NCBI GenBank assembly: GCA_963674605.1 | Contig: OY771474.1 | Span: forward strand, 3,032,341 to 3,096,340 | Source of the DNA: an uncultured Desulfobacterium sp. | Lineage (GTDB): Bacteria > Desulfobacterota > Desulfobacteria > Desulfobacterales > Desulfobacteraceae | Reading direction: 5' to 3' | Length of the DNA: 64,000 bases | Shown: piece by piece, positions 2,825-57,729 of the stretch | Numbering within the stretch: the first letter of the stretch is position 1 | How the letters are laid out: the number at the start of each line of letters is the position of its first letter | Notes under the pieces: model-generated | Told to the model about the DNA's origin: nothing | The model's input: the letters and a program-made list of their open reading frames with translations, nothing else | Databases searched by the model: none | Translations under genes and position numbers: made by a program

Positions 2825-3592
2825 ATGTCATCAAACCCATTCAGCATAAAAATAAATCGCCATAATTTCCCCCATGGATTTCCATGGACCATGGTAATTA
2901 TTTTTTTAATCATAACTGCCATGACCTCCCCCCTGAATGCGGAAACCCGCATTTTGTTTCTGGGAGACTCCCTCACCGCCGGATACGGGGTTGAACAGGA
3001 ACAGGCCTTCCCCTCCCTGCTCGGACCCTTGATCACCGCCGAAGGATACCCCGATGTAAAGCTCATCAACGCAGGCATCAGCGGTTCCACAACGGCCAGC
3101 GCCCTTTCCCGGCTTAAATGGTATAAACGGACCCGGCCAGACATCCTGTTCCTGGCCCTGGGGGCCAATGACGGCCTGCGGGGACTTTCCCTGTCCGCCA
3201 TGGAAAAACATCTGGACGACACCATAAGGATGGCGCTGGACCAAGGCATGACCGTTATTCTTGCCGGCATGGAAATCCCCCCCAATTACGGCCCGGCGTA
3301 CACCCGGCAGTTCAAACAGGTCTTCTTCTCCCTTGCGGAAAAACATTCCATTGTCCTGATGCCCTTTCTGCTGAAGGATGTGGCAGGAATGAGCCAGTAC
3401 AACCAGGCCGACGGTATCCATCCCACTGCTGCGGGCCACAGGATCATTGCCGCCAATGTCCTTCCCTATCTCGTCAAGGTATTAAAGGGACTGGACACCC
3501 CATCGGCCAGTGTAAATATTCGGTCAGGGCTCCATATTCGCCTGTTTTGGTCTGCTCATGCCCCAAACAGGCGAATATGGGGCACTGTCTAA
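2825..3592 (+). CDS. tesA: SGNH/GDSL hydrolase (TesA-like arylesterase / lysophospholipase L1). An alternative start at ATG 2891 gives a cleaner signal peptide.
   Basis: Block I motif FLGDSLTAGYG; GANDGLRG block; DGIHP (catalytic Asp/His). Followed by ybbA/ybbP-like ABC genes, the gene association known from E. coli tesA-ybbA-ybbP. The C-terminal ~35 aa run through a long hairpin and are probably incidental. Confidence 0.8.
   Translation: MSSNPFSIKINRHNFPHGFPWTMVIIFLIITAMTSPLNAETRILFLGDSLTAGYGVEQEQAFPSLLGPLITAEGYPDVKLINAGISGSTTASALSRLKWYKRTRPDILFLALGANDGLRGLSLSAMEKHLDDTIRMALDQGMTVILAGMEIPPNYGPAYTRQFKQVFFSLAEKHSIVLMPFLLKDVAGMSQYNQADGIHPTAAGHRIIAANVLPYLVKVLKGLDTPSASVNIRSGLHIRLFWSAHAPNRRIWGTV
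3532..3580. repeat. Long near-perfect inverted repeat (18/19-nt arms, 12-nt loop) in the 3' tail of the tesA-like ORF
   Basis: ccatattcgcctgttttgg (3532-3550) pairs with ccaaacaggcgaatatgg (3563-3580); the left arm has one extra t. Confidence 0.7.
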
Positions 3593-3618
3593 ACATTTAC
3601 ATAAGCAAGCTCAATCTT

Positions 3619-3776
3619 GGGCTTGGTCACAACATGAGCCACTTTGGGGTGGGGTCAGGCTTGCGTTATTGGCTTTATCGGTGGTTTTGGCGTTTGCAAA
3701 GGCTGTGGTCAATAACGCCAATAACACAAGCCTGACCCCGTTGACCTGTGACGGCAGGCCCATGTTGTGATCAAGC
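3619..3776. mobile_element. MITE-like element, type A (outer IR GCTTGGTCACAACATG, inner IR GGGGTCAGGCTTGCGTTATTGGC)
   Basis: Left end gggcttggtcacaacatgagccactttggggtggggtcaggcttgcgttattggc. Right end gccaataacacaagcctgaccccgttgacc...ggcccatgttgtgatcaagc. Related copies occur elsewhere in the window. Confidence 0.7.
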
Positions 3777-3867
3777 TTCGAATATTTACCGCCAGACATC
3801 ATAATTGGTGGCTTGCTCACAATAAGGGCCATTTATAAATCACTTTAAAAGACACCAGGGTAAACCC

Positions 3868-4548
3868 ATGAAAACCAAAGCAATCCTCACTGTCTCCCAT
3901 ATTAGAAAAGCCTATCCCCAGGCCGGTGCCGCCCCCCTCACAGTTATATTTGATACAAGTTTTAAAATCTACCCAGGCGAAACCGTTGCCGTCACCGGTC
4001 AATCCGGCAGTGGCAAAAGCACCCTCATGGCCCTGCTGGCAGGCCTTGACAGCCCTGATACCGGAAGCATCGTTCTCAACGACCGGGATATCAACACCAT
4101 GAACGAAGACCGTCTGGCCAAATTCCGGGCAGAACACATCGGCATTATTTTTCAGCAGTTTCACCTGATGCCCCATCTCACGGCAACAGAAAACATCATG
4201 CTGCCCCTGGAGATTTTAAAATACAAAAAAAAAGATATCCAGCATCGAACAAGGCAGGTACTGGAACAGGTCAATTTAACCCATCGGGAACGTCACCTGC
4301 CCTCCCAGCTCAGTGGTGGAGAATGCCAGCGAGTGGCCATTGCCCGGGCACTGGTGGTGAAACCGGCCCTGCTTCTGGCAGATGAGCCTACAGGGAATCT
4401 GGACTCCGACACCGGCGAACAGGTTGCGGATCTGCTCTTTGATCTGGTCACCGCTTCGGGCATGACCCTTATGGTGGTCACCCACAACAAAACCCTTGCC
4501 GGGCGATGCCAGAGAAGCCTTGAACTGAAAAAGGGGCAACTGCAATGA
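3868..4548 (+). CDS. ABC transporter ATP-binding protein (YbbA/LolD-like)
   Basis: Walker A GQSGSGKST, signature LSGGECQRVAIARAL, Walker B LLLADEPTGNLD. 4-nt overlap with the downstream permease gene. Confidence 0.9.
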   Translation: MKTKAILTVSHIRKAYPQAGAAPLTVIFDTSFKIYPGETVAVTGQSGSGKSTLMALLAGLDSPDTGSIVLNDRDINTMNEDRLAKFRAEHIGIIFQQFHLMPHLTATENIMLPLEILKYKKKDIQHRTRQVLEQVNLTHRERHLPSQLSGGECQRVAIARALVVKPALLLADEPTGNLDSDTGEQVADLLFDLVTASGMTLMVVTHNKTLAGRCQRSLELKKGQLQ

Positions 4549-7223
4549 ACCTGTGGATACGCCTGGCCGGAAAAGAACTGCTGAGAAACCATCGGTTTTC
4601 CCTTTTTTTTATCATCAATCTCTCCATCGGGCTGGTGGGATTCATTTCTCTCAATGCCTTTAACCACTCCATGGAAACCCATTTAAAAAACAATTTAAAG
4701 GAAATTCTCACGGCGGATATGGCCGTATATTCTTCAAGGCCCCTCACCCAGCCCGAAGAAAATATCATTGACACCGTGCTTGGCCCCCAACGCCAGACCG
4801 CCCGGCAGATCACTTTTTTCAGCATGATCTCGGGCAACGGGACTTCCCGGCTGGCCCGTATTGTGGCCATTGACGACAGCTTTCCCCTTTATGGAAGCAT
4901 CCGGTTTGAAGACCATCTGCCCGTATTAAACAGCAAAAATTCGTCCAGCCCCGGGCATACAGCCCTCAACGGCCCCACCCCCACGGCCTGGATCAGCCGG
5001 GATCTGGCCATGGTACTCAATGTAAAAAAAGGGGATCTTCTTGGCATCGGTGCCCAGAAGTTTCAGCTGGATGGCATTATAACCGCCACACCCACCGGGG
5101 CTGTTACCTCCCTGGAACTGGCCCCGGTGATTCACATCGGCATTTCCCGATTAAAAGAAACAAAACTTCTGGGGTTTGGCAGCCGTATTCGTTACACCCG
5201 TTATGACCGGCTGCCTTGGGGAACAGATATTCAACAGACCACAAAAACCCTTCGCACAGCTCTTTTGCCCCTGTTTGAGGGCGAACCCCAGATAAATGTC
5301 TACAACAGTGAAGATGTGAACCGAAACCTGGGCCGGGTATTTGGGTATTTCACCGGGTATCTGGGACTTGTGGCCATTGTGGCGTTGTTCCTTGCCGGTA
5401 TCGGAACGGCCTATCTGTTCCGGGGATATCTCAATGAACGCCTCAAGGAAATTGCCATTCTCATGAGTCTTGGTGCCGGTCGCCTGCAAACCTATGCGCT
5501 GCTGTTATGCCAGGTGATGCTGCTGGGCCTTGGAGCCACCATGGTCTCCGTGGCCCTGTCCTTTGTGGTGCTGCCCCTGTTCCCAGAGGTCATGAAGGGC
5601 CTGATTCCCCAGGATTTCAAGGCCGTTATAAATCCTGGAAGCCTGGGGCTGGCCGTATTTATGGGCACCCTTGGCAGTGTTATTTTCTGTCTTCCCGTGT
5701 TTGTGCGTATTCATAACTTAAAACCCCTGGTACTCTTACAGGGGATTTCCCCCTTTCAGAGGGCATCCAGTGACACCCAAACCCCAAAAACATGGGGACC
5801 TTTTAAAATCCCCACAAAACAGCAATACCTCCTGTTTATCAGTTTTATTCCCGGGGGCATGGCCTTCTGGGGCATGGCCATGGCCCAGACCCGTTCCCTT
5901 GAACGGGGCAGCCTGTTTCTGCTGGGGTTTATGGCCGTATTCGGCATCATGGCCCTCATCGGCCGGGGACTTCTGAGCCTTGCCGGACGATATTCGCGCA
6001 CCCACCGGGTCATGCCTGGAATTGCCCTGAGAAACCTTTTCCGTCACAGGCATGCCTCCATATCCTGTTTTGTCACCATTGCCATGGGGGCCTTTCTAAT
6101 AAATGTCATTCCCCAGGTGAAGAACGGTATCCTGGATGAAATCCGTCAGCCCCGGGGACTCCGGGTACCCGGTTTTTTTCTCTTTGACATTCAACCCGAA
6201 CAGCTTGCGCCCCTGGAAAATTTTCTTAAGGCAAAACAGCTTGAACTCACCAATGCCTCCCCCCTGGTACAGGGGCGTATCAACACCGTAAACGGTGGGG
6301 GATTTTACGAGGGCATGAAGGATAGAAAAAATACATTTTTAAGTAAATTTCAACAAAAAAATTCTCCGGAAACCGACAGCGGGCCCCGGGGAAACTTTCG
6401 CAGAAAAAATTTCACCTTTTCCTGGCGGGAAAAACTGGATGCATCGGAAACCATGGTTAAAGGAAGGCCTTTAAGCACCACCCCCTGGGATTTTGAAAGC
6501 AGCCAGCCCTTTGAGGTGTCCCTGGAAGAGGGTTTTGCCCGGCGATTTCACCTTGAAATCGGCGATGTCATGGGTTTTGATGTCCAGGGCATTGCCCTTG
6601 AAGGCCGGGTGGTAAACCTTCGCAAGGTTCGCTGGAACAGCTTTCAACCCAATTTTTTCATTCTCTTCCAGAAAGGGGTCCTTGATGAAGCGCCCCGGAC
6701 CTTTCTGGCATCCATTCCCCAGATGGAGGCGGCGGAGAAAATGCCCCTGCAAAATGCCATCATAGGCAAGTTTCCCAACATCTCCGTGCTGGATGTCAAT
6801 CAGACCGTGGCCCAGCTCATGGACATCACCCAGCGTCTGACCCTTTCCATCAATTTCATGGCCTGGCTGGCCATATTGGCCGGTCTGGTGGTCCTTTATT
6901 CCATTGTACGTCATGAAACCCGGACCCGGGCCTGGGAAATCAATTTATTAAAGGTGCTGGGGGCGGGGATCTCTGACATCCGGCAGATCATTGTGTTTGA
7001 ATTCGGTGTGCTGGGGACCACGGCGGCCCTGTTCGGCATTCTTTTAAGCCTGGGAGTCTCCTATGGGATTTCCTGGTTTTTCTTTGAAAAACTATGGGCT
7101 TTCCATCCAGGGTACATATTGTTTTCCCTGGGAGCCATCTCTTTTATATCCATGGCTACGGCCCTCATGGCCACGGGTCGGGTAATCCGCCAGAAACCGC
7201 TGGCTCTTTTGAGGACCATATAA
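4545..7223 (+). CDS. FtsX-family ABC transporter permease, duplicated type (YbbP-like, 892 aa)
   Basis: Two FtsX-like TM bundles separated by large loops. Translationally coupled to the ATPase, in ybbA-ybbP-like order. Confidence 0.8.
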   Translation: MNLWIRLAGKELLRNHRFSLFFIINLSIGLVGFISLNAFNHSMETHLKNNLKEILTADMAVYSSRPLTQPEENIIDTVLGPQRQTARQITFFSMISGNGTSRLARIVAIDDSFPLYGSIRFEDHLPVLNSKNSSSPGHTALNGPTPTAWISRDLAMVLNVKKGDLLGIGAQKFQLDGIITATPTGAVTSLELAPVIHIGISRLKETKLLGFGSRIRYTRYDRLPWGTDIQQTTKTLRTALLPLFEGEPQINVYNSEDVNRNLGRVFGYFTGYLGLVAIVALFLAGIGTAYLFRGYLNERLKEIAILMSLGAGRLQTYALLLCQVMLLGLGATMVSVALSFVVLPLFPEVMKGLIPQDFKAVINPGSLGLAVFMGTLGSVIFCLPVFVRIHNLKPLVLLQGISPFQRASSDTQTPKTWGPFKIPTKQQYLLFISFIPGGMAFWGMAMAQTRSLERGSLFLLGFMAVFGIMALIGRGLLSLAGRYSRTHRVMPGIALRNLFRHRHASISCFVTIAMGAFLINVIPQVKNGILDEIRQPRGLRVPGFFLFDIQPEQLAPLENFLKAKQLELTNASPLVQGRINTVNGGGFYEGMKDRKNTFLSKFQQKNSPETDSGPRGNFRRKNFTFSWREKLDASETMVKGRPLSTTPWDFESSQPFEVSLEEGFARRFHLEIGDVMGFDVQGIALEGRVVNLRKVRWNSFQPNFFILFQKGVLDEAPRTFLASIPQMEAAEKMPLQNAIIGKFPNISVLDVNQTVAQLMDITQRLTLSINFMAWLAILAGLVVLYSIVRHETRTRAWEINLLKVLGAGISDIRQIIVFEFGVLGTTAALFGILLSLGVSYGISWFFFEKLWAFHPGYILFSLGAISFISMATALMATGRVIRQKPLALLRTI

Positions 7224-9278: not shown

Positions 9279-9300
9279 TAATTAGATAAATATCTTGAAT

Positions 9301-9360
9301 CCAAGTCTGACCCCATTGGCCCGCCAATTGTGACGGGTGGCAGATCTTGTGATCAGGCCC
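9301..9360. repeat. Solo right-end fragment of a type-A MITE
   Basis: agtctgaccccattggcccgccaattgtgacgggtggcagatcttgtgatcaggccc parallels the right end of the copy at 50084-50250. Confidence 0.6.
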
Positions 9361-9443
9361 ATAAAAACAGATTAACAGGGATGTTGTCAAATAATTTTGC
9401 AGACCATCATCATCTCCGCCTGATATTGTAATCCATTCCCACT

Positions 9444-9663
9444 GGGCGCATTCCCATTTTCCCGGTTTGGTCACAATATGGTTTGTTTGTCATAGTTGGT
9501 GGGGCCAACGGGGTCAGGCTTGTGTTATTAGAGCCTGAGTTTTTATGAGGCTCTATGATTTTGTCAAGACCCTGTGTTTAAAGGCAAATTTAAACAAAAG
9601 CGCCAATAACGCAAGCCTGACCCCTCTCTGACAAGCGCGAAGCGGGAAAATGGGAATGCGCCC
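9444..9663. mobile_element. MITE-like element, type B (220 bp) with 22-bp terminal inverted repeats and an 8-bp target-site duplication
   Basis: TIRs are gggcgcattcccattttcccgg ... cgggaaaatgggaatgcgccc. A perfect direct repeat TTCCCACT lies at 9436-9443 and 9664-9671. Confidence 0.85.
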
Positions 9664-9816
9664 TTCCCACTTTTTTCTTTGATAATTGCCGATCACTGTA
9701 TTATCATGCAGCATTAGCCGTCAATAACCTGCATCCAGCCTGTTCTGCGAAAATCCATCCATACCATCCGGATAACTGCCCCGATCATCGCCGGAAACAA
9801 GAAGAGAGGTGTCCCC

Positions 9817-13309: not shown

Positions 13310-13335
13310 TATATTTTTTCACCATTCTTTACTTT

Positions 13336-13430
13336 GGGCCTGGTCATAACAGGGGCCACCCGTCACATTTGATGGGCCAACGGAGTCAGGCCTATATCAT
13401 TGGTGTTATCGACCAAAGCCGGGGCAAGCC
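13336..13430. repeat. Half copy of a type-A MITE (reverse orientation), interrupted by the type-B element to its right
   Basis: gggcctggtcataacaggggccacccgtcacatttgatgggccaacggagtcaggcc... matches the reverse complement of the right half of the 50084-50250 copy. Confidence 0.6.
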
Positions 13431-13435
13431 AGAAA

Positions 13436-13632
13436 GGGCGCATTCCCATTTTCCCGCTTTGCTCACAACATGGTTTATTTGTCACAATTAGCGGAGCCAA
13501 CGGGGTCAGGCTTGTGTTATTGTGATTTTGTCAAGAACCTGTGTTTAAAGGCAAATTTAAACAAAAGCGTCAATAACGCAAGCCTGACCCCTCCCTGATT
13601 AAGTGTCAAGCCGGGAAAATGGGAATGCACCC
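13436..13632. mobile_element. MITE-like element, type B short variant (197 bp)
   Basis: TIRs are gggcgcattcccattttcccgc ... ccgggaaaatgggaatgcaccc. Flanks are GCCAGAAA and GCCCGAAA, a 7/8 duplication. Confidence 0.8.
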
Positions 13633-13951
13633 AGCCCGAAATGACATCGATAGTGCCCAGAACGCAAGCCCGCCCGCTCTCCCAAGTGGCCTCTTTACTA
13701 AATCAAGGGCTTGATGGGAACATCAGCCAATCAGTGCCTGGTCACAAGTCAAAACTCAATGATCCATTGAGTAAAGGATTTATGTTTTTTTGTCATGTCT
13801 TTTCTCAACAAAGAAACGCATTTCTGAAATCCTGCAGATCATACCGTCGCACATATGCACCTTTACATACCTGTGGTCGCTCCCACCATTAAAGACTCAA
13901 CATACTGATAAGATAACATATTTTTCAAGGCATCTCCTTTAAAAAAAGCAA

Positions 13952-17763: not shown

Positions 17764-18954
17764 ATGTCAAAGGTATTAATCGTCGGAGCCGGGGGAGTGG
17801 GCAGTGTCACCACCCACAAATGCGCCCAGCTATCAGATATATTTACGGAAATTGTACTTGCCAGCCGAACCCTGTCCAAATGTGATGCCATTGCCCGGGA
17901 CATCCTTGAACGCACCGGCAAACAAATCACCACGGCCTGTCTGGATGCGGATAATGTAAAAGAAACCATTGCCTTCATTGAAAAGGTAAAGCCCGATGTG
18001 GTGGTGAACCTGGCCCTGCCATACCAGGACCTGCCCCTGATGGATGCCTGCCTTGCCACCGGGGTGGATTATCTGGACACGGCCAACTACGAGCCCCCGG
18101 ATGAGGCAAAGTTTGAATATAAATGGCAATGGGCCTACCGGGAAAAGTTTGAAGCAAAGGGACTCATGGCCCTGCTGGGTTCCGGGTTTGATCCAGGCGT
18201 CACCAATGTCTTCTGCGCCTGGGCCCAGAAGCATCACTTTGATGAAATTCATACCCTTGACATCATTGACTGCAATGCCGGGGACCACGGCCAGCACTTT
18301 GCCACCAACTTCAACCCGGAAATCAACATCCGGGAGATCACCCAGCGGGGCCGGTACTGGGAGCATGGCGAATGGGTGGAAACCGATCCCCTGTCCTGGT
18401 CCATGGACTATGATTTCCCCGAAGGCATCGGCAGCAAGAAATGCTATCTCATGTACCATGAGGAGCTGGAATCCCTGGTGATGCATCTCAAGGGCCTTAA
18501 ACGAGCCCGGTTCTGGATGACCTTTTCCCAGCAGTACTTAACCCACCTGAAAGTTCTTGAAAATGTGGGCATGACCGGCATTGACCCTGTAAATTACAAC
18601 GGCCAGGAGATTATTCCGTTAAAGTTTCTCAAGGCGGTGCTGCCGGAACCGGCATCCTTAGGTCCCCTTACCCAGGGTCGCACCTGCATTGGATGTTTAC
18701 TAAAGGGTATCAAGGACGGCAAAGAAAAAACCCTGTATGTATATAATATCTGCAGCCATGAAGAGGCCTTCAAAGAGGTGGGCTCCCAGGCCATCTCCTA
18801 CACCACCGGCGTACCAGCCATGATCGGTGCCATGCTCATGCTCCAGAAGAAATGGCATAAAAAAGGGGTGTGGCACATGGAACAGTTTGATCCAGATCCC
18901 TTCATGGATGCCTTGAACGCCCATGGCCTTCCCTGGAAAGCGGTGGAACTTTAA
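17764..18954 (+). CDS. Carboxy(nor)spermidine dehydrogenase (saccharopine dehydrogenase family)
   Basis: N-terminal Rossmann motif VGAGGVGS. Saccharopine-dehydrogenase-like C-terminal domain. Positioned between speA and nspC. Confidence 0.8.
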   Translation: MSKVLIVGAGGVGSVTTHKCAQLSDIFTEIVLASRTLSKCDAIARDILERTGKQITTACLDADNVKETIAFIEKVKPDVVVNLALPYQDLPLMDACLATGVDYLDTANYEPPDEAKFEYKWQWAYREKFEAKGLMALLGSGFDPGVTNVFCAWAQKHHFDEIHTLDIIDCNAGDHGQHFATNFNPEINIREITQRGRYWEHGEWVETDPLSWSMDYDFPEGIGSKKCYLMYHEELESLVMHLKGLKRARFWMTFSQQYLTHLKVLENVGMTGIDPVNYNGQEIIPLKFLKAVLPEPASLGPLTQGRTCIGCLLKGIKDGKEKTLYVYNICSHEEAFKEVGSQAISYTTGVPAMIGAMLMLQKKWHKKGVWHMEQFDPDPFMDALNAHGLPWKAVEL

Positions 18955-20123
18955 TGGATTACCCTGTACCCACGGCCTTTGATACCACAGCTTTACCCAC
19001 CCCCTGCTTTGTGGTGGATGAGGCGGCACTCGTGCACAACCTGGAGATTCTGGCATCGGTGAAGGAACAAACCGGATGCCGGATTCTCCTGGCCCTGAAG
19101 TGCTTTGCCATGTTCCGGGTCTTTCCCCTGCTTTCAAAGACCCTGGACGGCATCTGCGCAAGTTCCCCCCACGAGGCAAGGCTTGGAAGGGAAGAATTCG
19201 GCCGGGAGGTACACACCTTTGCTGCGGCCTATGCTGAAAGTGATATCAAAAGCCTGTGTGATACCACCGATCATCTGGTGTTCAACTCCTTTGCCCAGCT
19301 GGATCGCTTCCGGCCCCTGGTGGGGGACCTGACAAAAAAAAACGGCCGTCACATTGAACTTGGCATCCGCATCAACCCGGAGCATTCCGAAGGGGCCGTG
19401 CCCATTTACGATCCCTGTTCACCGGGATCCCGGCTGGGTATCCGGAAAAAGGCCTTTCCGGAAAACTTCCCCAAAGACATCACCGGCCTTCACTGGCACA
19501 ATCTGTGCGAACAGGATGCCGACTGCCTGGAACGTACTGTAACGGCCGTTGAAGAACGCTTTGGAGAATATATCCCCAAAGTGAAATACGTTAATTTCGG
19601 CGGGGGACATCACATCACCCGTCCGGGATATGATCTGGATCTGCTGGTGAAAATCATCCGGGAATTCAAGGCCAGATGGGGCAAAAACGTAATTCTTGAA
19701 CCAGGAGAAGCCGTGGCCCTGAACGCCGGTGTGCTGGTGGCAACGGTGCTGGACATTATAAAGGCGGACATGGACATTATCCTCATGGACGCATCGGTGC
19801 CCACCCACATGCCCGATGTTCTGGAGATGCCCTACCGTCCCCACATCGTGGGCTCAGCTCTCCCCGGGGAAAAGCCTTATACCTGCCGCATCGGCGGCCC
19901 CTCCTGCCTGGCAGGAGATGTGGCCGGGGAATATTCCTTTGATGCCCCCCTGTCGGTGGGGGACAAACTCATCTTCACGGACATGGCCATCTACACCATG
20001 GTAAAAACCAACACCTTTAACGGAGTACAGCTGCCGGCCATTGCCCTTTTGCCCGCCGGAAAAACCCAGCCGGAAATCATAAAAACCTTCGGGTATGAAG
20101 ATTTCAGATCCAGGCTTTCATAA
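18954..20123 (+). CDS. nspC: Carboxy(nor)spermidine decarboxylase
   Basis: Alanine-racemase-fold decarboxylase (group IV) sequence. The start overlaps the dehydrogenase stop. Polyamine gene context. Confidence 0.8.
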   Translation: MDYPVPTAFDTTALPTPCFVVDEAALVHNLEILASVKEQTGCRILLALKCFAMFRVFPLLSKTLDGICASSPHEARLGREEFGREVHTFAAAYAESDIKSLCDTTDHLVFNSFAQLDRFRPLVGDLTKKNGRHIELGIRINPEHSEGAVPIYDPCSPGSRLGIRKKAFPENFPKDITGLHWHNLCEQDADCLERTVTAVEERFGEYIPKVKYVNFGGGHHITRPGYDLDLLVKIIREFKARWGKNVILEPGEAVALNAGVLVATVLDIIKADMDIILMDASVPTHMPDVLEMPYRPHIVGSALPGEKPYTCRIGGPSCLAGDVAGEYSFDAPLSVGDKLIFTDMAIYTMVKTNTFNGVQLPAIALLPAGKTQPEIIKTFGYEDFRSRLS

Positions 20124-20129
20124 AAAGGG

Positions 20130-20805
20130 CATTATGCCGCCTCCGAGGACTGTCCTGCCCCCGGAGGCTCTGATGTCGATGGTCAAGAAACCATTTCCTT
20201 ATGACCTACATGGCAGTAATCACCTGTCACAACGAATAATGAAAATGGCATTATACCGCCGCCCCCCCCGACGGGCAATGGACCCGGACCGGAACTGTAG
20301 ACAGCTCAATTGTCCGGTTCCCATTGCCCATCGGGGGAGCGGCTCTGCTGAAGTTGCCTTGGAGGCTGCCTTTTCATATAAACCCGCATGTCCTGGTGGA
20401 CACAACGAAGATAGAAAATGGTAAATGCCATTATGCCGCCCCTCCCCCGACGGGCAATGGTCCCGGACCGGAACTGTAGACAGCTCGATTGTCCGGTTCC
20501 TATTGCCCATCGGGGGAGGGGCTCTGCTGAGGTCGACTTGAAGGCTACCTTTTCATACAACATGCATGGCAGTAGACACCTGCAACAACGAAAGTTGAAA
20601 CTCTAATCATTGCAGCACCTTGGAGGGATTTTCATATAAAACATACATGGCTGCTACCACCAGCCACAACGAAAAATGAAACTCTAATCATTGCAATTCT
20701 TTAAACGGAGTTTCATATAAAAACCCACATGGCAGTAATTACCTGCCACAACGAACAATGAAAAAGCAGTTGCTATCAGTATCCAGCACCTCCATATAAA
20801 AAAAA
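20130..20805 (+). repeat. Tandem array of about 8 modular structured elements ('C-family'): 1 degenerate + 2 full long-hairpin modules interleaved with 5 small-hairpin modules
   Basis: Recurrent unit: CATG-hairpin (e.g. tggcag-taattac-ctgcca) + ACAACGAAnAnTGAAA + variable insert + TTTTCATATAAA. Long-module core: ggcattatgccgcccctcccccgacgggcaatgg...ctattgcccatcgggggaggggctctgctgagg. Confidence 0.85.
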
Positions 20806-20820
20806 TAGATCGGAAAAAAA

Positions 20821-21705
20821 ATGAATAATACCCCTGATTTTATTGACTCGGAACTCACCCTCCGGGATGAAAACAATTCCCGGTTCCATGTCATTCCCGT
20901 TCCCATGGAAACCTCTGTATCCTATGGGGGGGGAACGGCCCAGGGCCCACGGGCCATTCTCATGGCCTCCCAACAGCTGGAAGCCTGGGATGGCCAATGC
21001 CTGCCCCTGGAGCAGGGCATTCACACAACAGGGCCTGTGGATTGCAAAGGAGCCGTTGAAGATATCCTGGCCCGCATTGAAAAGGCCGTATCAAAAGCCC
21101 TGGCCTTGAATGCCCTTCCCGTAATTCTCGGGGGGGAACACACCGTAACCCTGGGAGCATTGCGGGCGTTGAAAAAGGCATCATCCAAGGCTTTTGGCAT
21201 TGTACAGGTGGATGCCCATGCCGATCTCCGGGACACCTACGAGGAAAACCCTTTAAGCCATGCCTGCGTCATGCGAAGGGCCACCCAGGACCTTGGGATT
21301 CCCCTGGTTCAGCTGGGGGTTCGTGCCCTGTGCCGGGAAGAGGATCACTATCGTCGGGAAAAGAACATCACCTTTTTTGATGCCCGGCAGCTGCATCTCC
21401 AGGGCATTCCCGATGAGCTGTTGCCCCCGGATTTTCCCGATGACATTTACATCACCCTGGATGTGGACGGACTTGATCCATCTGTGATCCGGGCAACGGG
21501 CACACCGGTTCCCGGAGGACTTGGGTGGCAAGACACCCTGACCTTGCTTGAAAAAAGCATGCACAATAAAAAAGTGGTGGGGTTTGATGTTGTGGAACTG
21601 GCCCCCATGGCCGGAGACCATGCATCGGATTTTGCGGCGGCCCAACTGGTGTACAGCACCATGGGCATGATTAACAGGGCATGGGAAACTGCCCATGACG
21701 CTTAA
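20821..21705 (+). CDS. speB: Agmatinase (ureohydrolase family)
   Basis: Mn-binding motifs GGEHTVT, DAHADL and DVDGLDP. Polyamine cluster context. Confidence 0.85.
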   Translation: MNNTPDFIDSELTLRDENNSRFHVIPVPMETSVSYGGGTAQGPRAILMASQQLEAWDGQCLPLEQGIHTTGPVDCKGAVEDILARIEKAVSKALALNALPVILGGEHTVTLGALRALKKASSKAFGIVQVDAHADLRDTYEENPLSHACVMRRATQDLGIPLVQLGVRALCREEDHYRREKNITFFDARQLHLQGIPDELLPPDFPDDIYITLDVDGLDPSVIRATGTPVPGGLGWQDTLTLLEKSMHNKKVVGFDVVELAPMAGDHASDFAAAQLVYSTMGMINRAWETAHDA

Positions 21706-29140: not shown

Positions 29141-29261
29141 ACTTTTGATGTAATATGAATGATGCCGGGTTTTCTTGCTGTTTTTCTATAATTGCCACGG
29201 GCAGAGTGTCTTCTAAATCCAGCCTGCTCAAAACAAATAATGGGTCGCAGACGCGGAGCCA

Positions 29262-29492
29262 AATGGCATTATGCCCCCCCTCCCCCGACGGGCAATGGAC
29301 CCGGACCGGAACTGTAGACAGCTCGATTGTCCGGTTCCTATTGCCCATCGGGGGAGGGGCTCTGCTGAGGTAGACTTGAAGGCTACCTTTTCATATAACC
29401 TACATGGCTGTAACCACCAGCCACAACGAAAATAGAAAAAGCAGGGTATACGAATACCCAGCACCAAGAACCCGCTTTTTCATATAAAAAAA
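29262..29492 (+). repeat. C-family array: one long-hairpin module + one small-hairpin module, ending 9 nt before the racemase start codon
   Basis: aaatggcattatgccccccctcccccgacgggcaatggacccggaccggaactgtagacagctcgattgtccggttcctattgcccatcggggg...ttttcatataa, then catggctgtaaccaccagccacaacgaaaatagaaaa...tttttcatataaaaaaa. Confidence 0.85.
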
Positions 29493-31037: not shown

Positions 31038-31541
31038 TCAGCCGGGGCAGGGAGGGTCATTTAAATCCCTTCGCAGTTTCTGAAGGGTCAGATGGGTTTC
31101 TATCCGGGCCAGCAGCTCCTCTGCCTGGAAGGGTTTTGTAAGATAATCCACCCCGCCTGCGGAAAAACTTTTCACCTTATCGTGGACATTATCCAAGAAC
31201 GCACCCGATATGGGCGCATTCCCATTTTCCTGGTTTGGTCACAATATGGTTTGTTTGTCATAGTTGGTGGGGCCAACGGGGTCAGGCTATGTGGTATTAG
31301 AGCCTGAGTTTTTATCAGGCTCTATGATTTTGTCAAGAACCTGTGTTTAAAGGCAAATTTAAACAAAAGCGCCAATAACGCAAGCCTGACCCCTCTCTGA
31401 TTAAGCGCGAACCGGGAAAATGGGAATGCGCCCCACCCGATATCCTTCCTCTCCCAGTATTCTTACAAAAAACTTTACATTTTCCCGGATATCGTCAACC
31501 ACCACGATATTACCCTTACAAGCCGCTGCATTTTCTTTCAC
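31038..31541 (-). pseudogene. Decayed response-regulator (receiver) gene: N- and C-terminal fragments in different frames, separated by a type-B MITE
   Basis: Minus-strand N-fragment (GTG at 31541): KENAAACKGNIVVVDDIRENVKFFVRILGEEGYRV. C-fragment: FLDNVHDKVKSFSAGGVDYLTKPFQAEELLARIETHL...*. The central ~55 aa of a receiver domain are absent. Confidence 0.7.
31212..31433. mobile_element. MITE-like element, type B (222 bp), flanked by a 10-bp direct repeat
   Basis: TIRs are gggcgcattcccattttcctgg ... ccgggaaaatgggaatgcgccc. CACCCGATAT lies at 31202-31211 and 31434-31443. Confidence 0.85.
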
Positions 31542-31763
31542 AATCAGACTCCCTTTCTCATTATCCTCAAAATTTCAGCATATTCAAATCCATCTGCCAA
31601 CACCTTTATTTCCCTTGCAAGCCCCTTGTCCTCATCTTCCATATGGAGGATCATCCGATGAATCAATGTTATATCCGCCCGCTGCACGGCATCTTCCATG
31701 TCATTACACAGGCCCGGAGACAAGCAATCGGCACGGCTTTGGAAGGTTTGCTGCTCTTCCCAC

Positions 31764-31906
31764 TGTGGGGTGGGGTCAGGCTTGCGTTATTGAGGCTTTT
31801 GCTTAAAATCTTCTTTATGCACAGGTGTTTGTCAAAAACACAAGAACACAAGCCTGACCCCGTTGGCCCGCCAATAACGATGAATGGTCCATGTTATGAC
31901 CACACC
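31764..31906. repeat. Type-A MITE copy, left end truncated
   Basis: tggggtggggtcaggcttgcgttattg ... cacaagcctgaccccgttggcccgccaataacgatgaatggtccatgttatgaccacaccc. Confidence 0.6.
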
Positions 31907-31989
31907 CACGACATCTATTTGCAATAGTTTTATATATGAGATAGTCTACATTGATTCATGATTAATTCCAAGCAATTGCAGGAGCAGAT

Positions 31990-35639: not shown

Positions 35640-35737
35640 TCAATCCCCCATGATCGGGTTTTACGAACTTGTTTTCAAGGATGTTCAGCCGTTGTGGGCA
35701 GGTGAAACCCCAGGGTCGGCCCAAGGGGGTTAAAATG

Positions 35738-35796
35738 GGGCTTGGTCACAGCATGGGCCACTTTGGGGTGGGGTCAGTTTGGGGTGGGGTCAGGCC
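35738..35796. repeat. Type-A MITE left-end fragment with an internal 16-nt duplication
   Basis: ggggcttggtcacagcatgggccactttggggtggggtcag + tttggggtggggtcaggccc. Confidence 0.55.
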
Positions 35797-39200: not shown

Positions 39201-39811
39201 TGCCAAGCCGAATCCAGGATATCCTCACACCCACGGTGGAGTTGATCCAGGCCGGAGGTGTGGTAATGGCTCCGCTAATCTTTCTGAGCCTTATCATGTG
39301 GCTTTTGATCATCGAACGGGCCTTTTTTTTCCGCAGGCTATACCGTAAAAACATGACCGCCCGCACCGCGCTTACCTTTATCCACCAGAATCAAATGCCG
39401 GATCCTGCCCAGTACCGGGGAGCCATCAGCCTGCTGGTCACCGAATTCATCGCCAGCAAAACCGGAAACCGGCGACTGGACCGACACCTGCTGGACGCAT
39501 CCGTGGCCCGGATCAACCGTCGGCTCACCCGGTTTCTGGCCCTCATCGGCGTATTGGCAGCCATGGCCCCGCTTTTAGGGTTGCTTGGCACGGTGACGGG
39601 CATGATCAGCACCTTTGACGTGCTGGCCGTGTTTGGCACGGGTAATGCCAAAGCCATGGCCGGCGGCATCTCCCAGTCCCTGATCACCACCCAGACCGGA
39701 CTCATCGTGGCCATCCCAGGTCTTTACATGAAGGGATTTCTGGACCGGCGGGCGGACACCCTGGGCCAACGCATCCTGCGGGTGGGGCTTTACCTGAAAA
39801 GGCACGTATAA
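39200..39811 (+). CDS. exbB: MotA/TolQ/ExbB proton-channel protein
   Basis: LGLLGTVTGMISTF, GGISQSLITTQTGLIVAIPG. The start overlaps the upstream stop. Confidence 0.85.
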   Translation: MPSRIQDILTPTVELIQAGGVVMAPLIFLSLIMWLLIIERAFFFRRLYRKNMTARTALTFIHQNQMPDPAQYRGAISLLVTEFIASKTGNRRLDRHLLDASVARINRRLTRFLALIGVLAAMAPLLGLLGTVTGMISTFDVLAVFGTGNAKAMAGGISQSLITTQTGLIVAIPGLYMKGFLDRRADTLGQRILRVGLYLKRHV

Positions 39812-40076
39812 ATATACATGGCAGTAAGCACCTGCCACAACGAAAATTGAAACTCTTATTATTACAGCATTTTGGACGGAGTTTCTTATAAACCCGCATG
39901 TCCTGGCGGATACAACGAATATTGAAAATGGTAAATGGCATCATGCCGCCCCTCCCCCGACGGGCAATGGGCCCGGACCGGAACTGTAGACAGCTCGATT
40001 GTCCGGTTCCTATTGCCCATCGGGGGAGGGGCTCTGCTGAGGTAGACTTGAAGGCTACCTTTTCATATAAAAAAAA
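39806..40076 (+). repeat. C-family array (2 small-hairpin modules + 1 long-hairpin module) filling the exbB-exbD intergenic space
   Basis: It begins at the exbB stop (gtataaatatacatggcagtaagcacctgccacaacgaaaattgaaa) and ends ttttcatataaaaaaaa, 14 nt before the exbD ATG. Confidence 0.85.
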
Positions 40077-48365: not shown

Positions 48366-48494
48366 ATTTTTTCCCTTTGTCTTTCATATATGCCGCAACG
48401 AGCTATTTAAGCGTAACCCTTGGAGAGTATTTTAATAATTTAGATCTATCACTATGATGTTCAACCTTTTTCTGCCAATTAGCCAGAACTGTTC

Positions 48495-48588
48495 CAGGCC
48501 TGTGTTATTGGCATTATAGAGCAAAGCCGCGGCAAACCCCAAACGCCACCGATAATGCCCATAACAAAAGCATGGCCCCTTTCCATCA
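48495..48588. repeat. Minimal 'core' copy of the type-A repeat (inner inverted repeat only, degenerate)
   Basis: caggcctgtgttattggcattatagagcaaagccgcggcaaaccccaaacgccaccgataatgcccataacaaaagcatgg. Confidence 0.5.
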
Positions 48589-48650
48589 TAGGAAGATACA
48601 TCAATTGCCGGCATTTTGGCAAGATTAACATAAAAATGGCATGGACAAAT

Positions 48651-48840
48651 CGGGCTTGGTCACAACATGGGCCACCCTTGGTGGGGGTCAGGCCTGCCTC
48701 ATTGACGCTTGTGTTAATGTTTGCTTGGAAACACAGGTAGTTGTCAAACGCATGAAGCCTGAAAAAACATCAGCCATCAATAACACAAGCCTGACCATCC
48801 CAATGACCCCACCCCAAAGTGGTCTCATTCTGTCCGGCCC
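48651..48840. mobile_element. Type-A MITE copy with a type-B-like central segment; right end degenerate
   Basis: gggcttggtcacaacatgggccacccttggtgggggtcaggcc ... caataacacaagcctgacc...ccccaccccaaagtggtctcat. It abuts the lysR-type gene stop. Confidence 0.65.
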
Positions 48841-49769: not shown

Positions 49770-49920
49770 CCATGTCGGCCCGCCGGGGGCTCTGCTATCG
49801 GTATTTTCATATAACCCACATGTCCTGGCGGACACAACGAATATTGAAAATGGTAAATGGCATTATGCCGCCCCTCCCCCGACGGGCAATGGACCCGGCC
49901 CGGAACCGTAGGCGGGGATT
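49770..49920 (+). repeat. C-family array remnant: 3' stub of a long module + small module + 5'-truncated long module
   Basis: ccgggggctctgctatcggtattttcatataa / cccacatgtcctggcggacacaacgaatattgaaaatggtaaatggcattatgccgcccctcccccgacgggcaatggacccgg, then divergence. Confidence 0.75.
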
Positions 49921-50083
49921 TTTTGTTATTAAAAATATTCAAATAAAATATGAATATTATGAATTTTACTTATACACTCTTTTATGGTTATAAATAAAGC
50001 ATAAAACAAGCTGGAAGTTGCCAGGAGATATCAATCTACACCGTTACCGTAAAAGCACATTACTCCCGTTGGCCTGACAATTA

Positions 50084-50250
50084 GGGCTTGGTCACAACAT
50101 GGGCCACTTTAGGGTGGGGTCAGGCTTGCGTTATTGGCATTATCGTTGGTTTTGGCTTTTTCACAGGCTGTGGTCGATAACGCCAATAACACAAGCCTGA
50201 CCCCGTTGGCCCATTAAATGTGACGGGTGGCCCACGCTGTGACCAAGCCC
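50084..50250. mobile_element. Type-A MITE (167 bp) with a perfect 8-bp target-site duplication, inserted into the end fragment of an older copy
   Basis: gggcttggtcacaacatgggccac ... gtggcccacgctgtgaccaagccc. GACAATTA lies at 50076-50083 and 50251-50258. The joined flanks resemble a type-A right end. Confidence 0.85.
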
Positions 50251-53121: not shown

Positions 53122-53441
53122 TCTCTACTCCCGCAAATCAATGTAAACCCTGAAGTATAGTCTTGAAGCTCAACATGAGAACAGTGTTTTCATCTTTTTC
53201 TATATCAGATTCACAGGGAAAAAAACAAAATAATTACATTAATTATGTAATTGGCGTCAAGATCAAGACTTACAGAGCGCTTTTTGGGGGTATGGGTTCG
53301 GATGGTTTTAAGGCATTTCCCGGTAAAAACGTCAAAGAAAGCAGGAAAATACCCGTTTTGAGGCCTTTAAGTCATAATATAGCTCAATCTGAAGGAAAAC
53401 AAAGAGGAGGAAACACACCCTTTTGAGGGGGCATGGGTTTT

Positions 53442-53637
53442 GGGCGCATTCCCATTTTCCCGGTTCGCGCTTAATCAAAGAGGGGTCAGGCTTGCGTTAT
53501 TGGCGCTTTTATTTAAATTTGCCTTTAAACACAGGCTCTTGACAAAATTACAATAACACAAGCCTGACCCCGTTGGCCCCACCAACTATGACAAACAAAC
53601 CATATTGTGACCAAACCGGGAAAATGGGAGTGCGCCC
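53442..53637. mobile_element. MITE-like element, type B short variant, internal sequence inverted relative to the other type-B copies; lies 7 nt downstream of the phoR stop
   Basis: TIRs are gggcgcattcccattttcccgg ... ccgggaaaatgggagtgcgccc. Flanks are TGGGTTTT and TGGGATTT (7/8). Confidence 0.8.
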
Positions 53638-53644
53638 TGGGATT

Positions 53645-56971: not shown

Positions 56972-57093
56972 GTATTTTTCTCCTTAACTGAATTTTTAAA
57001 TTACAAGAGCCTCGCCAATTATCTTTTTGATCAGCGTATCAGCAGTATTGATGTACTTCTACTCGACGTTCAAATTTTTGTTGGCCGGTTTTG

Positions 57094-57196
57094 CCATAAC
57101 GGGCTCCGACTTGTGCCATTGTTTTTATAAACCAAAGCCGGGGCGAACCCCAAATGCCACCGATCATGCCCATAACGCAAGTCTGCCCCCTCCCCA
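57094..57196. repeat. Degenerate core copy of the type-A repeat
   Basis: ccataacgggctccgacttgtgccattg...caaagccggggcgaaccccaaatgccaccgatcatgcccataacgcaagtctgcccc. Confidence 0.45.
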
Positions 57197-57729
57197 TTAT
57201 ATGTCAATATAAAAAAGCTTGATCATCAAGTTACAACTTCCATTGCTTTGTATCAGAAAACATTTATTGCAAAGCGTGAAAAAAAAATAATGCATGCCCG
57301 ATAAACTTTCACAAATCAATCAACACCAAAAATTGAGCAAACATGACTCCGAATTAAACCCATTAGATTTATTGTTAAGCAATAGTATACGCCTGCTATG
57401 TTAGAATTTTGTTATGATTATGTTAAGAGTGAATTAAATCTGCTCAAATTGTAACCAAACACAATACCATGCCTGATAAAGATCCTGTCTGACGAGCTTG
57501 ATCACAACATGGGCTAGTTTTCAACACCCCGGCCCAACCAGCTGTCCACCCATGAAAACATGATAGTCATATGAACTAAATCCGATGTTTATTGGATAAT
57601 ATCAAAATAAATCTGATTAATTTTAATATATTTGCAATTCATATGATTTTAGATTTGACATAGATCATATCTTTATACTATGCTTCCATTCGATCAGTAA
57701 AATTCTTAAACTTTTGTGAAGGAAAAAAA

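Follow-up and report, generated by a model that had tools for sequence, protein, structure and literature searches.

Between nspC and speB in a 64,000-nucleotide stretch of contig OY771474.1 from an uncultured Desulfobacterium sp. (hereafter the window) lies an array of short structured repeats, which probably represents a cluster of miniature, non-autonomous elements that carry no gene and derive from an insertion sequence (IS) of the IS110 family, that is, selfish DNA rather than regulatory RNA. The repeat units share both ends and the target preference of this IS. Since they carry both IS ends in the same order and orientation but lack the transposase, we regard them as its gene-less miniature derivatives.

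The upstream gene, nspC (18954-20123), encodes a pyridoxal phosphate (PLP)-dependent decarboxylase domain (Pfam Orn_DAP_Arg_deC); its closest homologues are named carboxynorspermidine decarboxylase, with 96% identity to Desulfocicer niacini. The downstream gene, speB (20821-21705), belongs to the arginase/agmatinase family. Homologue names and domains thus agree with the flanking genes given in an earlier note on this DNA. The spacer is made of head-to-tail repeats, among which we count six units (M0 to M5, Table 1) where about eight modules had been proposed; the whole window holds about twelve. Tandem Repeats Finder reports an 81-nt period at 20555-20763. The hairpin and core described below are present in five units of the array, the leading unit M0 being partial and devoid of both; M0 is also the first unit in L110, one of the orthologous loci compared below. 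The units span 81-180 nt and contain no open reading frame (ORF) with a coding signal, as judged by codon-usage scoring.

The repeats are strictly oriented within the window. The ACAACGAANNNNGAAA core occurs nine times, on the + strand only, against 0.37 occurrences expected by chance, and a covariance model built from 30 compact units returned eight + strand matches and no genuine - strand match when run on the window with filters off. The TTTCATATAA terminal box and the GGCATTATGCCGCC head of the long units are repeated at all four named sites (the array and sites 2 to 4 in Table 1), in agreement with the earlier description of four sites, all on the + strand.

Each unit consists of a left part, xTAAC-CATG-hairpin-CACAACGAA-NNNT-GAAAxyz, and a right part, zyxTTTCATATAA, in which GAAAxyz and zyxTTTC form the subterminal inverted repeat of the element. 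The consensus reads (T)ATAAC, 1-4 nt, CA, a hairpin closed by UG...CA, CAACGAA, NNN, UGAAAxyz, a highly variable insert, zyxUUUCA and UAUAA, and a TATAA(C) box lies ~7 nt 5' of each unit hairpin. Per unit, the IS contributes about 45 nt from its left end and about 15 nt from its right end. The segment between the ends is dispensable: the miniatures have a short loop, a long hairpin of foreign origin or a microsatellite in this place, and in the IS it comprises the transposase gene and a 72-nt non-coding unit. The anatomy recognized in the earlier note (a hairpin, the ACAACGAA box, a variable segment and the TTTCATATAA tail) is borne out, as are the 23-bp-stem long hairpins; the spacer folds far more stably than shuffled sequence (z = -11). 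In many units the variable region is filled with microsatellite-like (CCCAGTAC)n or (AGCTGTTAGC)n of varying copy number (L010, L019, L023, L026, L027, L047, L052, L065, L093, L098 and L107; in the window, 20764-20790 and 29439-29477).

The parent element was identified in locus L030, where a 1745-bp unit (ATAACCCACATGTCCTGGCGGACACAACGAAGCATGAAACAC... to ...GTGTTTCATATAA) lies head-to-tail between ordinary units and carries a transposase gene (3015-4268, 418 amino acids). Its product matches DEDD_Tnp_IS110 (PF01548, E = 3.9e-23) and Transposase_20 (PF02371, E = 3.8e-16), and its homologues carry the name IS110 family transposase. We collected IS sites from two multi-copy transposase variants, one single-copy variant and L030, obtaining 18 distinct insertion sites of this IS (copies of 1696-1766 bp; L030, L117, L120-L136). 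At all of them similarity opens at (A)ATAAC-CC-CCATG-hairpin-CACAACAAA-NNNT-GAAACAC and closes at GTGTTTCATATAA(A), and at most of them both flanks are unrelated, non-unit DNA; one copy sits between two ORFs that each match Phage_integrase, apparently the halves of a split integrase gene. Because similarity among the copies is confined to the interval from hairpin and core through the tail, with unrelated flanks, these sequences are the left and right ends of the IS itself. The IS has a subterminal inverted repeat, GAAACAC / GTGTTTC, and shares with the IS110 family the lack of terminal inverted repeats; no direct repeat besides ATAA was found at the 18 sites. At L129 (1937-2038), a second IS left end lies ~60 nt past the right end of the first, so that two copies are nearly in tandem.

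The ends of the window units match those of the IS closely: from ATAAC to ACAACGAA, the left end of the site-4 unit is identical to that of the L030 IS (31/31 nt), and the left end of M2 matches it at 40/47 positions. Both the IS and many units are present in the related genome OY764894.2. A tblastn search of the collected loci with the L030 protein found relatives of 85-87% identity on three Desulfobacter curvatus contigs, and relatives of 48-52% identity directly 3' of the same hairpin and core in an acidobacterial metagenome-assembled genome (MAG; L041) and a deltaproteobacterial MAG (L108). In IS110-family relatives of 38% identity (Alicyclobacillus, Burkholderia plasmids), CAT-hairpin-...GAA-GGATGAA opens the upstream non-coding region; the end layout is thus kept at this level of protein identity, which explains the occurrence of the core in several phyla.

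The converse relationship was also considered: the units would form an older repeat family of separate origin that the IS110-family element prefers as a target, with hairpin, core and tail all belonging to that target. Repeated palindromes are known IS110-family targets (PMC12288879), as repetitive extragenic palindromic (REP) sequences are for IS621 and ISPpu9, and the L030 transposase unit does lie inside an array of units. However, at most of the 18 sites the DNA outside (A)ATAAC...CATG and ...TTTCATATAA(A) is unrelated and non-unit, apparently including the split integrase gene, and identity among the copies starts and stops exactly at the unit-end motifs, so this explanation demands a complete, identically cut target at each unrelated site. 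We consider it highly improbable, and we dropped the reading of the L030 IS as an insertion into a unit since 18 independent sites show the hairpin, core and tail to be IS ends.

Target choice offers an explanation for the head-to-tail arrangement. The IS inserts at TTYYNA|ATAA (18 sites) and units without a preceding unit at TTTYRT|ATAA; both motifs resemble the right end of the element, TTTCAT-ATAA, and insertion takes place in one orientation. ATAA is found at both junctions of the IS insertions, as expected of a shared crossover core. Apart from the shared (T)ATAA no target-site duplication was found, so that the earlier observation that the units lack terminal inverted repeats and ordinary duplications stands. 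Because each insertion would recreate a good target at its own tail, head-to-tail arrays and IS copies followed by units would result, and units do lie directly 3' of the IS in L030, L132, L135 and L136. Suitable targets are also encoded by the host: nspC ends in ...CTTTCATAA| and exbB in ...GTA TAA|, site 3 beginning directly after the exbB stop codon (GTA TAA, 39809-39811), while site 2 is preceded by the T-rich TTTTTCTATAA. In the mechanism that we propose, miniatures would be excised as circles and reinserted in trans by the IS transposase together with its seek/bridge guide RNA, new copies would land beside old ones at the recreated tail targets, and arrays would lengthen head-to-tail. 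In gene orientation, TAA stop codons and -10-like boxes would be natural sources of T-rich sequence followed by ATAA.

In Acidobacteriota and others (L008, L009, L028, L039, L044, L046, L079, L094 and L097), the gene 5' of each copy encodes a large FtsX-type permease with the C terminus ...RVDP(I/M)VALRYE*, and the copy begins 5 nt past its stop codon; the readable right ends run into CATAGGAG (6/9 loci), after which the next gene follows. We attribute this position to a resemblance of the conserved 3' end of the permease gene to the target; it may be a recurrent one.

Unit content turns over fast among close relatives. Comparison of the orthologous polyamine operon across the window and L109-L112 gave a nspC-speB spacer of 697 nt in the window, with its six units; of 526 nt in L109 (NspC 96% identical) and 374 nt in L110 (91%), with units unlike those of the window; and of 572 nt in L112 (D. 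vacuolatum, 84%), with other unit types. In L111 (OY764894.2, 84%) the spacer is 35 nt long and empty, reading ...GGCTTTCATAA|CCCCTATTCAGG... (also written ...GGCTTTCATAA|CCCCTATTC...ATG). This empty site indicates that the window array starts right at the 3' end of nspC itself, a mimic of a unit tail. The exbB-exbD spacer measures 279 nt in the window and 12-20 nt, without units, in L113, L115 and L116; in L114 it measures 55 nt and holds only the 5' half of another unit type at the same point after GTA TAA. As read from these sequences, the window and L114 insertions are independent events beside a host-encoded (T)ATAA. Further presence/absence differences occur behind speA and behind speB in the polyamine loci. 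One unit in L109 has its core interrupted by an inserted copy of a MITE-like element (described below), apparently with duplication of 9 bp, ACAACGAAG.

For comparison across genomes, a pattern scan of one genome per species yielded at least 108 stretches, and the cross-genome counts below refer to the matches listed from it. Most derive from Desulfobacterium, Desulfocicer and Desulfobacter genomes or MAGs, others from Acidobacteriota, Syntrophobacter, Desulfomonile, Bryobacterales and a Moorella MAG; the pattern found no match in viral contigs. Neighbouring genes were called by the codon-usage scorer. Arrays between co-directional genes are read in sense in 42 cases and antisense in 18 when exact-core matches are counted, and in 35 and 18 (18/53) for model matches with stricter gene calls. 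The antisense arrays are flanked by well-scoring genes, and divergent or convergent spacers hold arrays as commonly. The earlier claim that the units always follow gene orientation therefore holds for the four window sites and fails elsewhere.

These counts bear on the proposal that the units act in cis as RNA, in processing, stability, translation or attenuation, and are kept because they tune the downstream gene. All four window sites are in sense and end ahead of a start codon, the distance from the final TATAA being about 14-21 nt; the 9-15 nt given initially are obtained only by counting the trailing A-run. Outside the Desulfobacteraceae the sense excess is stronger (13 vs 2 among the matches listed), and copies there often run from the upstream stop codon to the Shine-Dalgarno-like CATAGGAG. 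The array transcript would also fold stably, as the z-score above implies, and both hairpins covary: in an alignment of 132 of the listed model matches, which was fitted to the model and is hence biased toward structure, 89% of positions in the two helices are paired against 74% in shuffled controls, 11/15 pairs have changed on both sides, and the left hairpin is 96.6% paired.

Against a role as cis-acting RNA, however, the same operon is empty in one relative and its composition varies between near relatives, both unit ends are accounted for as IS ends, and the downstream genes are functionally unrelated, sharing no common function. Antisense copies make up a third of the arrays between co-directional genes. 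Stem mismatches comprise 52 G-U and 44 A-C pairs among the matches listed, a balance without the RNA-type G-U excess expected for copies kept as one-strand folded RNA. A scan for sigma-70 promoters and intrinsic terminators found no + strand site in the array, and the hairpin and U-run said to end each module is accordingly not recovered as a + strand terminator-like site. Units resemble terminators three times as often when read antisense (57/140) as in sense (19/140, among the matches listed), which alone could favour sense copies within operons. From gene-oriented targets and terminator-like antisense copies, we infer that the sense bias is explicable without an RNA function. The empty spacer, the differing units at 91-96% NspC identity, the antisense copies and the similar G-U and A-C counts together speak against the operon-internal RNA signals and the tandem small RNA (sRNA) units initially suggested. 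Tuning of the downstream gene is, in our judgement, very unlikely, and the array would have no dedicated role in nspC-speB expression, being merely tolerated in the transcript.

The IS may nonetheless encode an RNA of its own. Its 3' non-coding region (~350-470 nt) contains a conserved 72-nt unit, ATAAC-ATG-...CACAACNAA-CTGT-hairpin-CG-CATATAAAAC, whose hairpin covaries among IS variants and which, matching both IS ends, is a candidate seek/bridge RNA. Searches against Rfam 15 at the gathering threshold, which covered the window, 19 loci of other phyla and the IS loci with their non-coding regions, gave no match, and E-value thresholds gave only chance miRNA-like matches on the long hairpin, consistent with the initial statement that the repeats fit no known class of non-coding RNA.

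The layout of the candidate raises the question of whether each miniature is likewise a small RNA gene, either a tandem sRNA or a mini seek/bridge-like guide whose GAAAxyz pairs with its own right end. The 72-nt internal unit has a like layout and lies in the 3' non-coding region, where seekRNA genes usually reside in the IS1111 family and some IS110-family members (PMC11187229). Moreover, xyz and zyx covary inside each unit, and the TATAA(C) box precedes each hairpin by ~7 nt. No -35 element at workable spacing was found, however, nor any promoter or terminator on the + strand in the scan; G-U and A-C mismatches are balanced; and the xyz/zyx complementarity fits a subterminal inverted repeat equally well. 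The bridge RNA of IS621 has two guide loops, for which an 85-nt unit offers little room. An RNA gene in each unit is therefore very unlikely. A further suggestion, which we rate as unlikely, is that each unit is a self-contained donor encoding a short guide-like RNA (hairpin, CACAACGAA and GAAAxyz) that matches its own right end. If this were true, an RNA-guided DEDD recombinase would find in the arrays landing pads that extend themselves, and the unit, at about 85 nt, would represent a minimal natural substrate of bridge recombination, diversified into many guide/end subtypes; the xyz/zyx covariation within units would then reflect guide-donor matching instead of a plain inverted repeat.

Derivation from a different type of mobile element had been raised in the earlier note, which proposed DNA of the IS200/IS605 type resembling palindrome-associated transposable elements; such DNA would move in single-stranded form through a Y1 HUH transposase. 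Selfish, IS-derived DNA without terminal inverted repeats or ordinary duplication is what we find, with hairpins near both ends and insertion 3' of a fixed short sequence; the family assignment, in contrast, does not hold, as the ends are those of an IS110-family (DEDD) element. The hairpins at the two ends differ from each other, the right one being hypervariable; neither a Y1 (TnpA) nor a TnpB gene was found in the window; and the full-length element with the unit ends encodes a DEDD IS110-family transposase. Neither is the suggested replication-linked orientation bias detectable: local GC skew follows gene direction, and in divergent or convergent contexts, where gene direction is set aside, the two orientations relative to strand composition are represented 19 and 20 times, with no tie to unit orientation. 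We judge this alternative to be extremely improbable. In the window, GC skew is constantly negative (-0.02 to -0.09) while all units and ~70% of the coding length lie on the + strand; a uniformly negative skew with mostly + strand coding is an unusual combination.

Several observations weigh against derivation from the IS110-family element. No transposase gene is present in the 64-kb window (the source genome comprises 6.06 Mb). The miniatures are presumably moved in trans via circles, by analogy with ISPpu9 (see below), and this movement is something that we infer. The xyz triplet varies with unit subtype (CTC, GTC, ATG, AAG and CAC), CAC being found in every IS copy seen; if a match of xyz to one guide RNA is required, moving all subtypes would be beyond a single IS and would call for several IS/guide variants or for self-encoded guides. 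In our own reading of the junctions, those of L123 share AACC. Lastly, a host function could also underlie the sense excess outside the Desulfobacteraceae and the constant position of the Acidobacteriota copies, which follow the stop codon in genes of a single permease family.

Other candidates were tried and rejected. A mini-ORF or leader peptide (AUG...UGA in one hairpin type) is untenable because the two hairpin types shift the reading frame of the conserved core. The consensus features do not fit the hammerhead, twister, pistol and hatchet ribozymes, and the Rfam models were unmatched. The array is not CRISPR, as initially stated, since variable segments recur across loci and genomes and there are no cas genes in the window. 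Integron attC sites are imperfect palindromes bounded by the inverted core sites R'' (RYYYAAC) and R' (GTTRRRY), and are likewise rejected; the units have the same direct TATAA(C/A) box at both ends and no GTTRRRY at the 3' end. A REPIN-style arrangement with a transposase between oppositely oriented copies was dismissed because only ordinary genes were found there, and a REP/RAYT (REP-associated tyrosine transposase) system because the units are head-to-tail and lack a GTAG motif.

Table 1. Positions of units, sites and associated repeats. Coordinates refer to the window unless a locus is named.
Feature	Position	Strand	Description
Host-supplied insertion target, 3' end of nspC	20116..20127	+	GGC TTT CAT AA; stop codon 20121-20123; mimics the element right end TTTCATA(TA)A
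M0, partial unit	20128..20206	+	No left-end hairpin or core; cargo-type hairpins GGCATTATGCC and GCCTCCGAGG...CCCCGGAGGC; degenerate tail TTCCTTATGACC
M1, long unit	20207..20382	+	Left end CATG-GCAGTAATCACCTGTC-ACAACGAATAATGAAA, 20209-20244; cargo hairpin with ~23-bp stem; right end TTTCATATAAA, 20372-20382
M2, long unit	20383..20560	+	Left end CATGTCCTGGTGGACACAACGAAGATAGAAA, 20387-20417; cargo long hairpin; right end TTTCATACAA, 20551-20560
M3, 81-nt miniature	20561..20641	+	Hairpin and core 20565-20600; subterminal inverted repeat GAAACTC.../...GGATTTTC, then TTTCATATAAAA; model score 58.7 bits
M4, 82-nt miniature	20642..20723	+	Top model match, 92.6 bits, E = 1e-23; GAAACTC/GAGTTTC inverted repeat closes the variable region
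M5, miniature	20724..20805	+	Degenerate right end CTCCATATAA and A-run; 15 nt before the speB start codon at 20821; 41.5 bits
Site 2, spacer between PLP-dependent enzyme and Asp/Glu racemase genes	29179..29492	+	One degenerate long unit and one miniature (29394-29489, 66.7 bits)
Site 3, within the exbB-exbD operon	39806..40076	+	One miniature (39808-39893, 88.7 bits) and one long unit
Site 4, between divergent LysR-family and aldehyde dehydrogenase genes	49770..49912	+	Partial tail 49770-49814 and an interrupted unit
72-nt internal unit of the IS	L030 4383-4455		
72-nt internal unit of the IS	L117 2535-2606		
72-nt internal unit of the IS	L120 2311-2382		
72-nt internal unit of the IS	L130 2303-2374		
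Second repeat family	3511-3601, 3611-3746, 9294-9668, 13335-13637, 31212-31438, 31735-31908, 35733-35795, 48479-48796, 50076-50250, 53441-53642, 57090-57201		

The site-4 unit is interrupted in the middle of its long hairpin by an AT-rich stretch unrelated to the units (49913-50060, TTTTTTGTTATTAAAAATATTCAAATAAAATATGAATATTATG...). The second repeat family in Table 1 is likewise unrelated to the units; it is more abundant, occurs in both orientations, comprises the blocks GGGGTCAGGCTTGCGTTATTG, GCTTGGTCACAACATGGGCCAC and GGGCGCATTCCCATTTTCCCGG, and forms inverted pairs of up to 184 nt with 88-99% complementarity. An element resembling miniature inverted-repeat transposable elements (MITEs), with terminal inverted repeats TGTAAATATTCGGT...ACCGAATATTTACA, is found in the window at 3511-3601, in L109 at ~4466-4630 and in L110 at ~5440-5620. 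In the Syntrophobacter MAG OY762941.1 (L001, L012, L066 and L100), a unit lies in the loop of a palindrome, GTCATTCCGGCGAAC...AAAGGCCGGAATCC, forming a composite repeat.

The closest described counterpart of the IS and its miniatures is ISPpu9 of Pseudomonas putida KT2440, whose transposase gene is bordered on the left by the A box, 43 bp long and containing an inverted repeat, and on the right by the 16-bp B box (PMC12288879). Its ssr9 module, bounded by A' and B' boxes, occurs head-to-tail beside ISPpu9 and also alone elsewhere; circles carrying tnp, tnp and ssr9, or ssr9 alone have been detected, and ssr9 was called a selfish passenger by its authors (PMC12288879). The present system likewise combines a gene-less module sharing the IS end boxes, head-to-tail arrangement, site-specific insertion and a short core common to IS and target. 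Unlike ssr9, the units here are far more numerous (about 12 in 64 kb) and shorter (about 81-86 nt), fall into many subtypes, vary in their cargo and are arrayed in groups of up to six; the boxes have no sequence similarity to those of ISPpu9, and the target resembles the right end of the element itself, not REP. That IS-end-flanked cargo can be moved by a transposase and its seekRNA was reported by Siddiquee et al. (PMC11187229).

The IS shares with IS110/IS1111 elements such as IS621, ISEc11 and ISEc21 a DEDD transposase (PF01548 and PF02371), the lack of terminal inverted repeats, long non-coding regions and sequence- and orientation-specific insertion, and its subterminal inverted repeats are a feature also of the IS1111 group. 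Of the two non-coding regions, the downstream one is longer in IS1111-group elements, whereas in the IS110 group the longer one is mostly upstream (PMC11187229). The IS described here combines traits of both: its 418-aa transposase has the size of the IS110 subgroup, whereas the longer 3' non-coding region and subterminal repeats are IS1111-like. The candidate for its guide RNA is the 72-nt unit.

Further parallels exist with other short repeats. Like MITEs, the units are abundant, intergenic internal-deletion derivatives that retain only the ends and would be moved in trans; they differ in lacking terminal inverted repeats and staggered-cut duplications, in having a DEDD and not a DDE parent, and in forming head-to-tail arrays as a rule. 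With REP/BIME (bacterial interspersed mosaic element) and REPIN/RAYT systems they have in common that they are short, structured extragenic repeats, often in operons, and mosaics of modules, but the GTAG-type tetranucleotide, inverted pairs and Y1 RAYT gene of REPs have no equivalent in the present units. Mycobacterial interspersed repetitive units (MIRUs) and the BOX elements of Streptococcus pneumoniae are similarly modular, tandem 40-100 bp units of operon spacers that are mostly co-oriented with genes and sometimes overlap a stop codon; there is no sequence relationship. MIRUs and BOX are not known to have an established autonomous parent element; here the parent IS is identified.

In the full-text literature we found no description of the motif family or of these Desulfobacteraceae intergenic repeats; the earlier characterization of the repeats as undescribed thus applies to the units themselves, although mobile elements of their kind are known. 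The genome paper of Desulfobacterium autotrophicum noted, but did not resolve, an unusual repeat load (PMC2702500).

Our findings explain a conspicuous class of structured intergenic DNA in the large genomes of sulfate reducers and call for caution, as such arrays should not be annotated as riboswitch-like or sRNA elements. Between tightly coupled genes, as in exbB-exbD and nspC-speB, 280-700 nt of inserted structured DNA can be present, and the natural empty and filled alleles make its effect on polycistronic expression directly testable. The recombinases guided by bridge and seek RNAs that are under development for genome engineering come from IS110 and IS1111 elements. Here an element has been reduced naturally to about 45 nt of left and about 15 nt of right end and then multiplied, which illustrates how little DNA may suffice to move. 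Related units occur in several Desulfobacteraceae genera, and the left-end layout also in Acidobacteriota and other phyla. Being numerous and widespread, they provide a ready comparative data set on the minimum donor, on the relation between the target and the element's own end, and on the tolerance for cargo.

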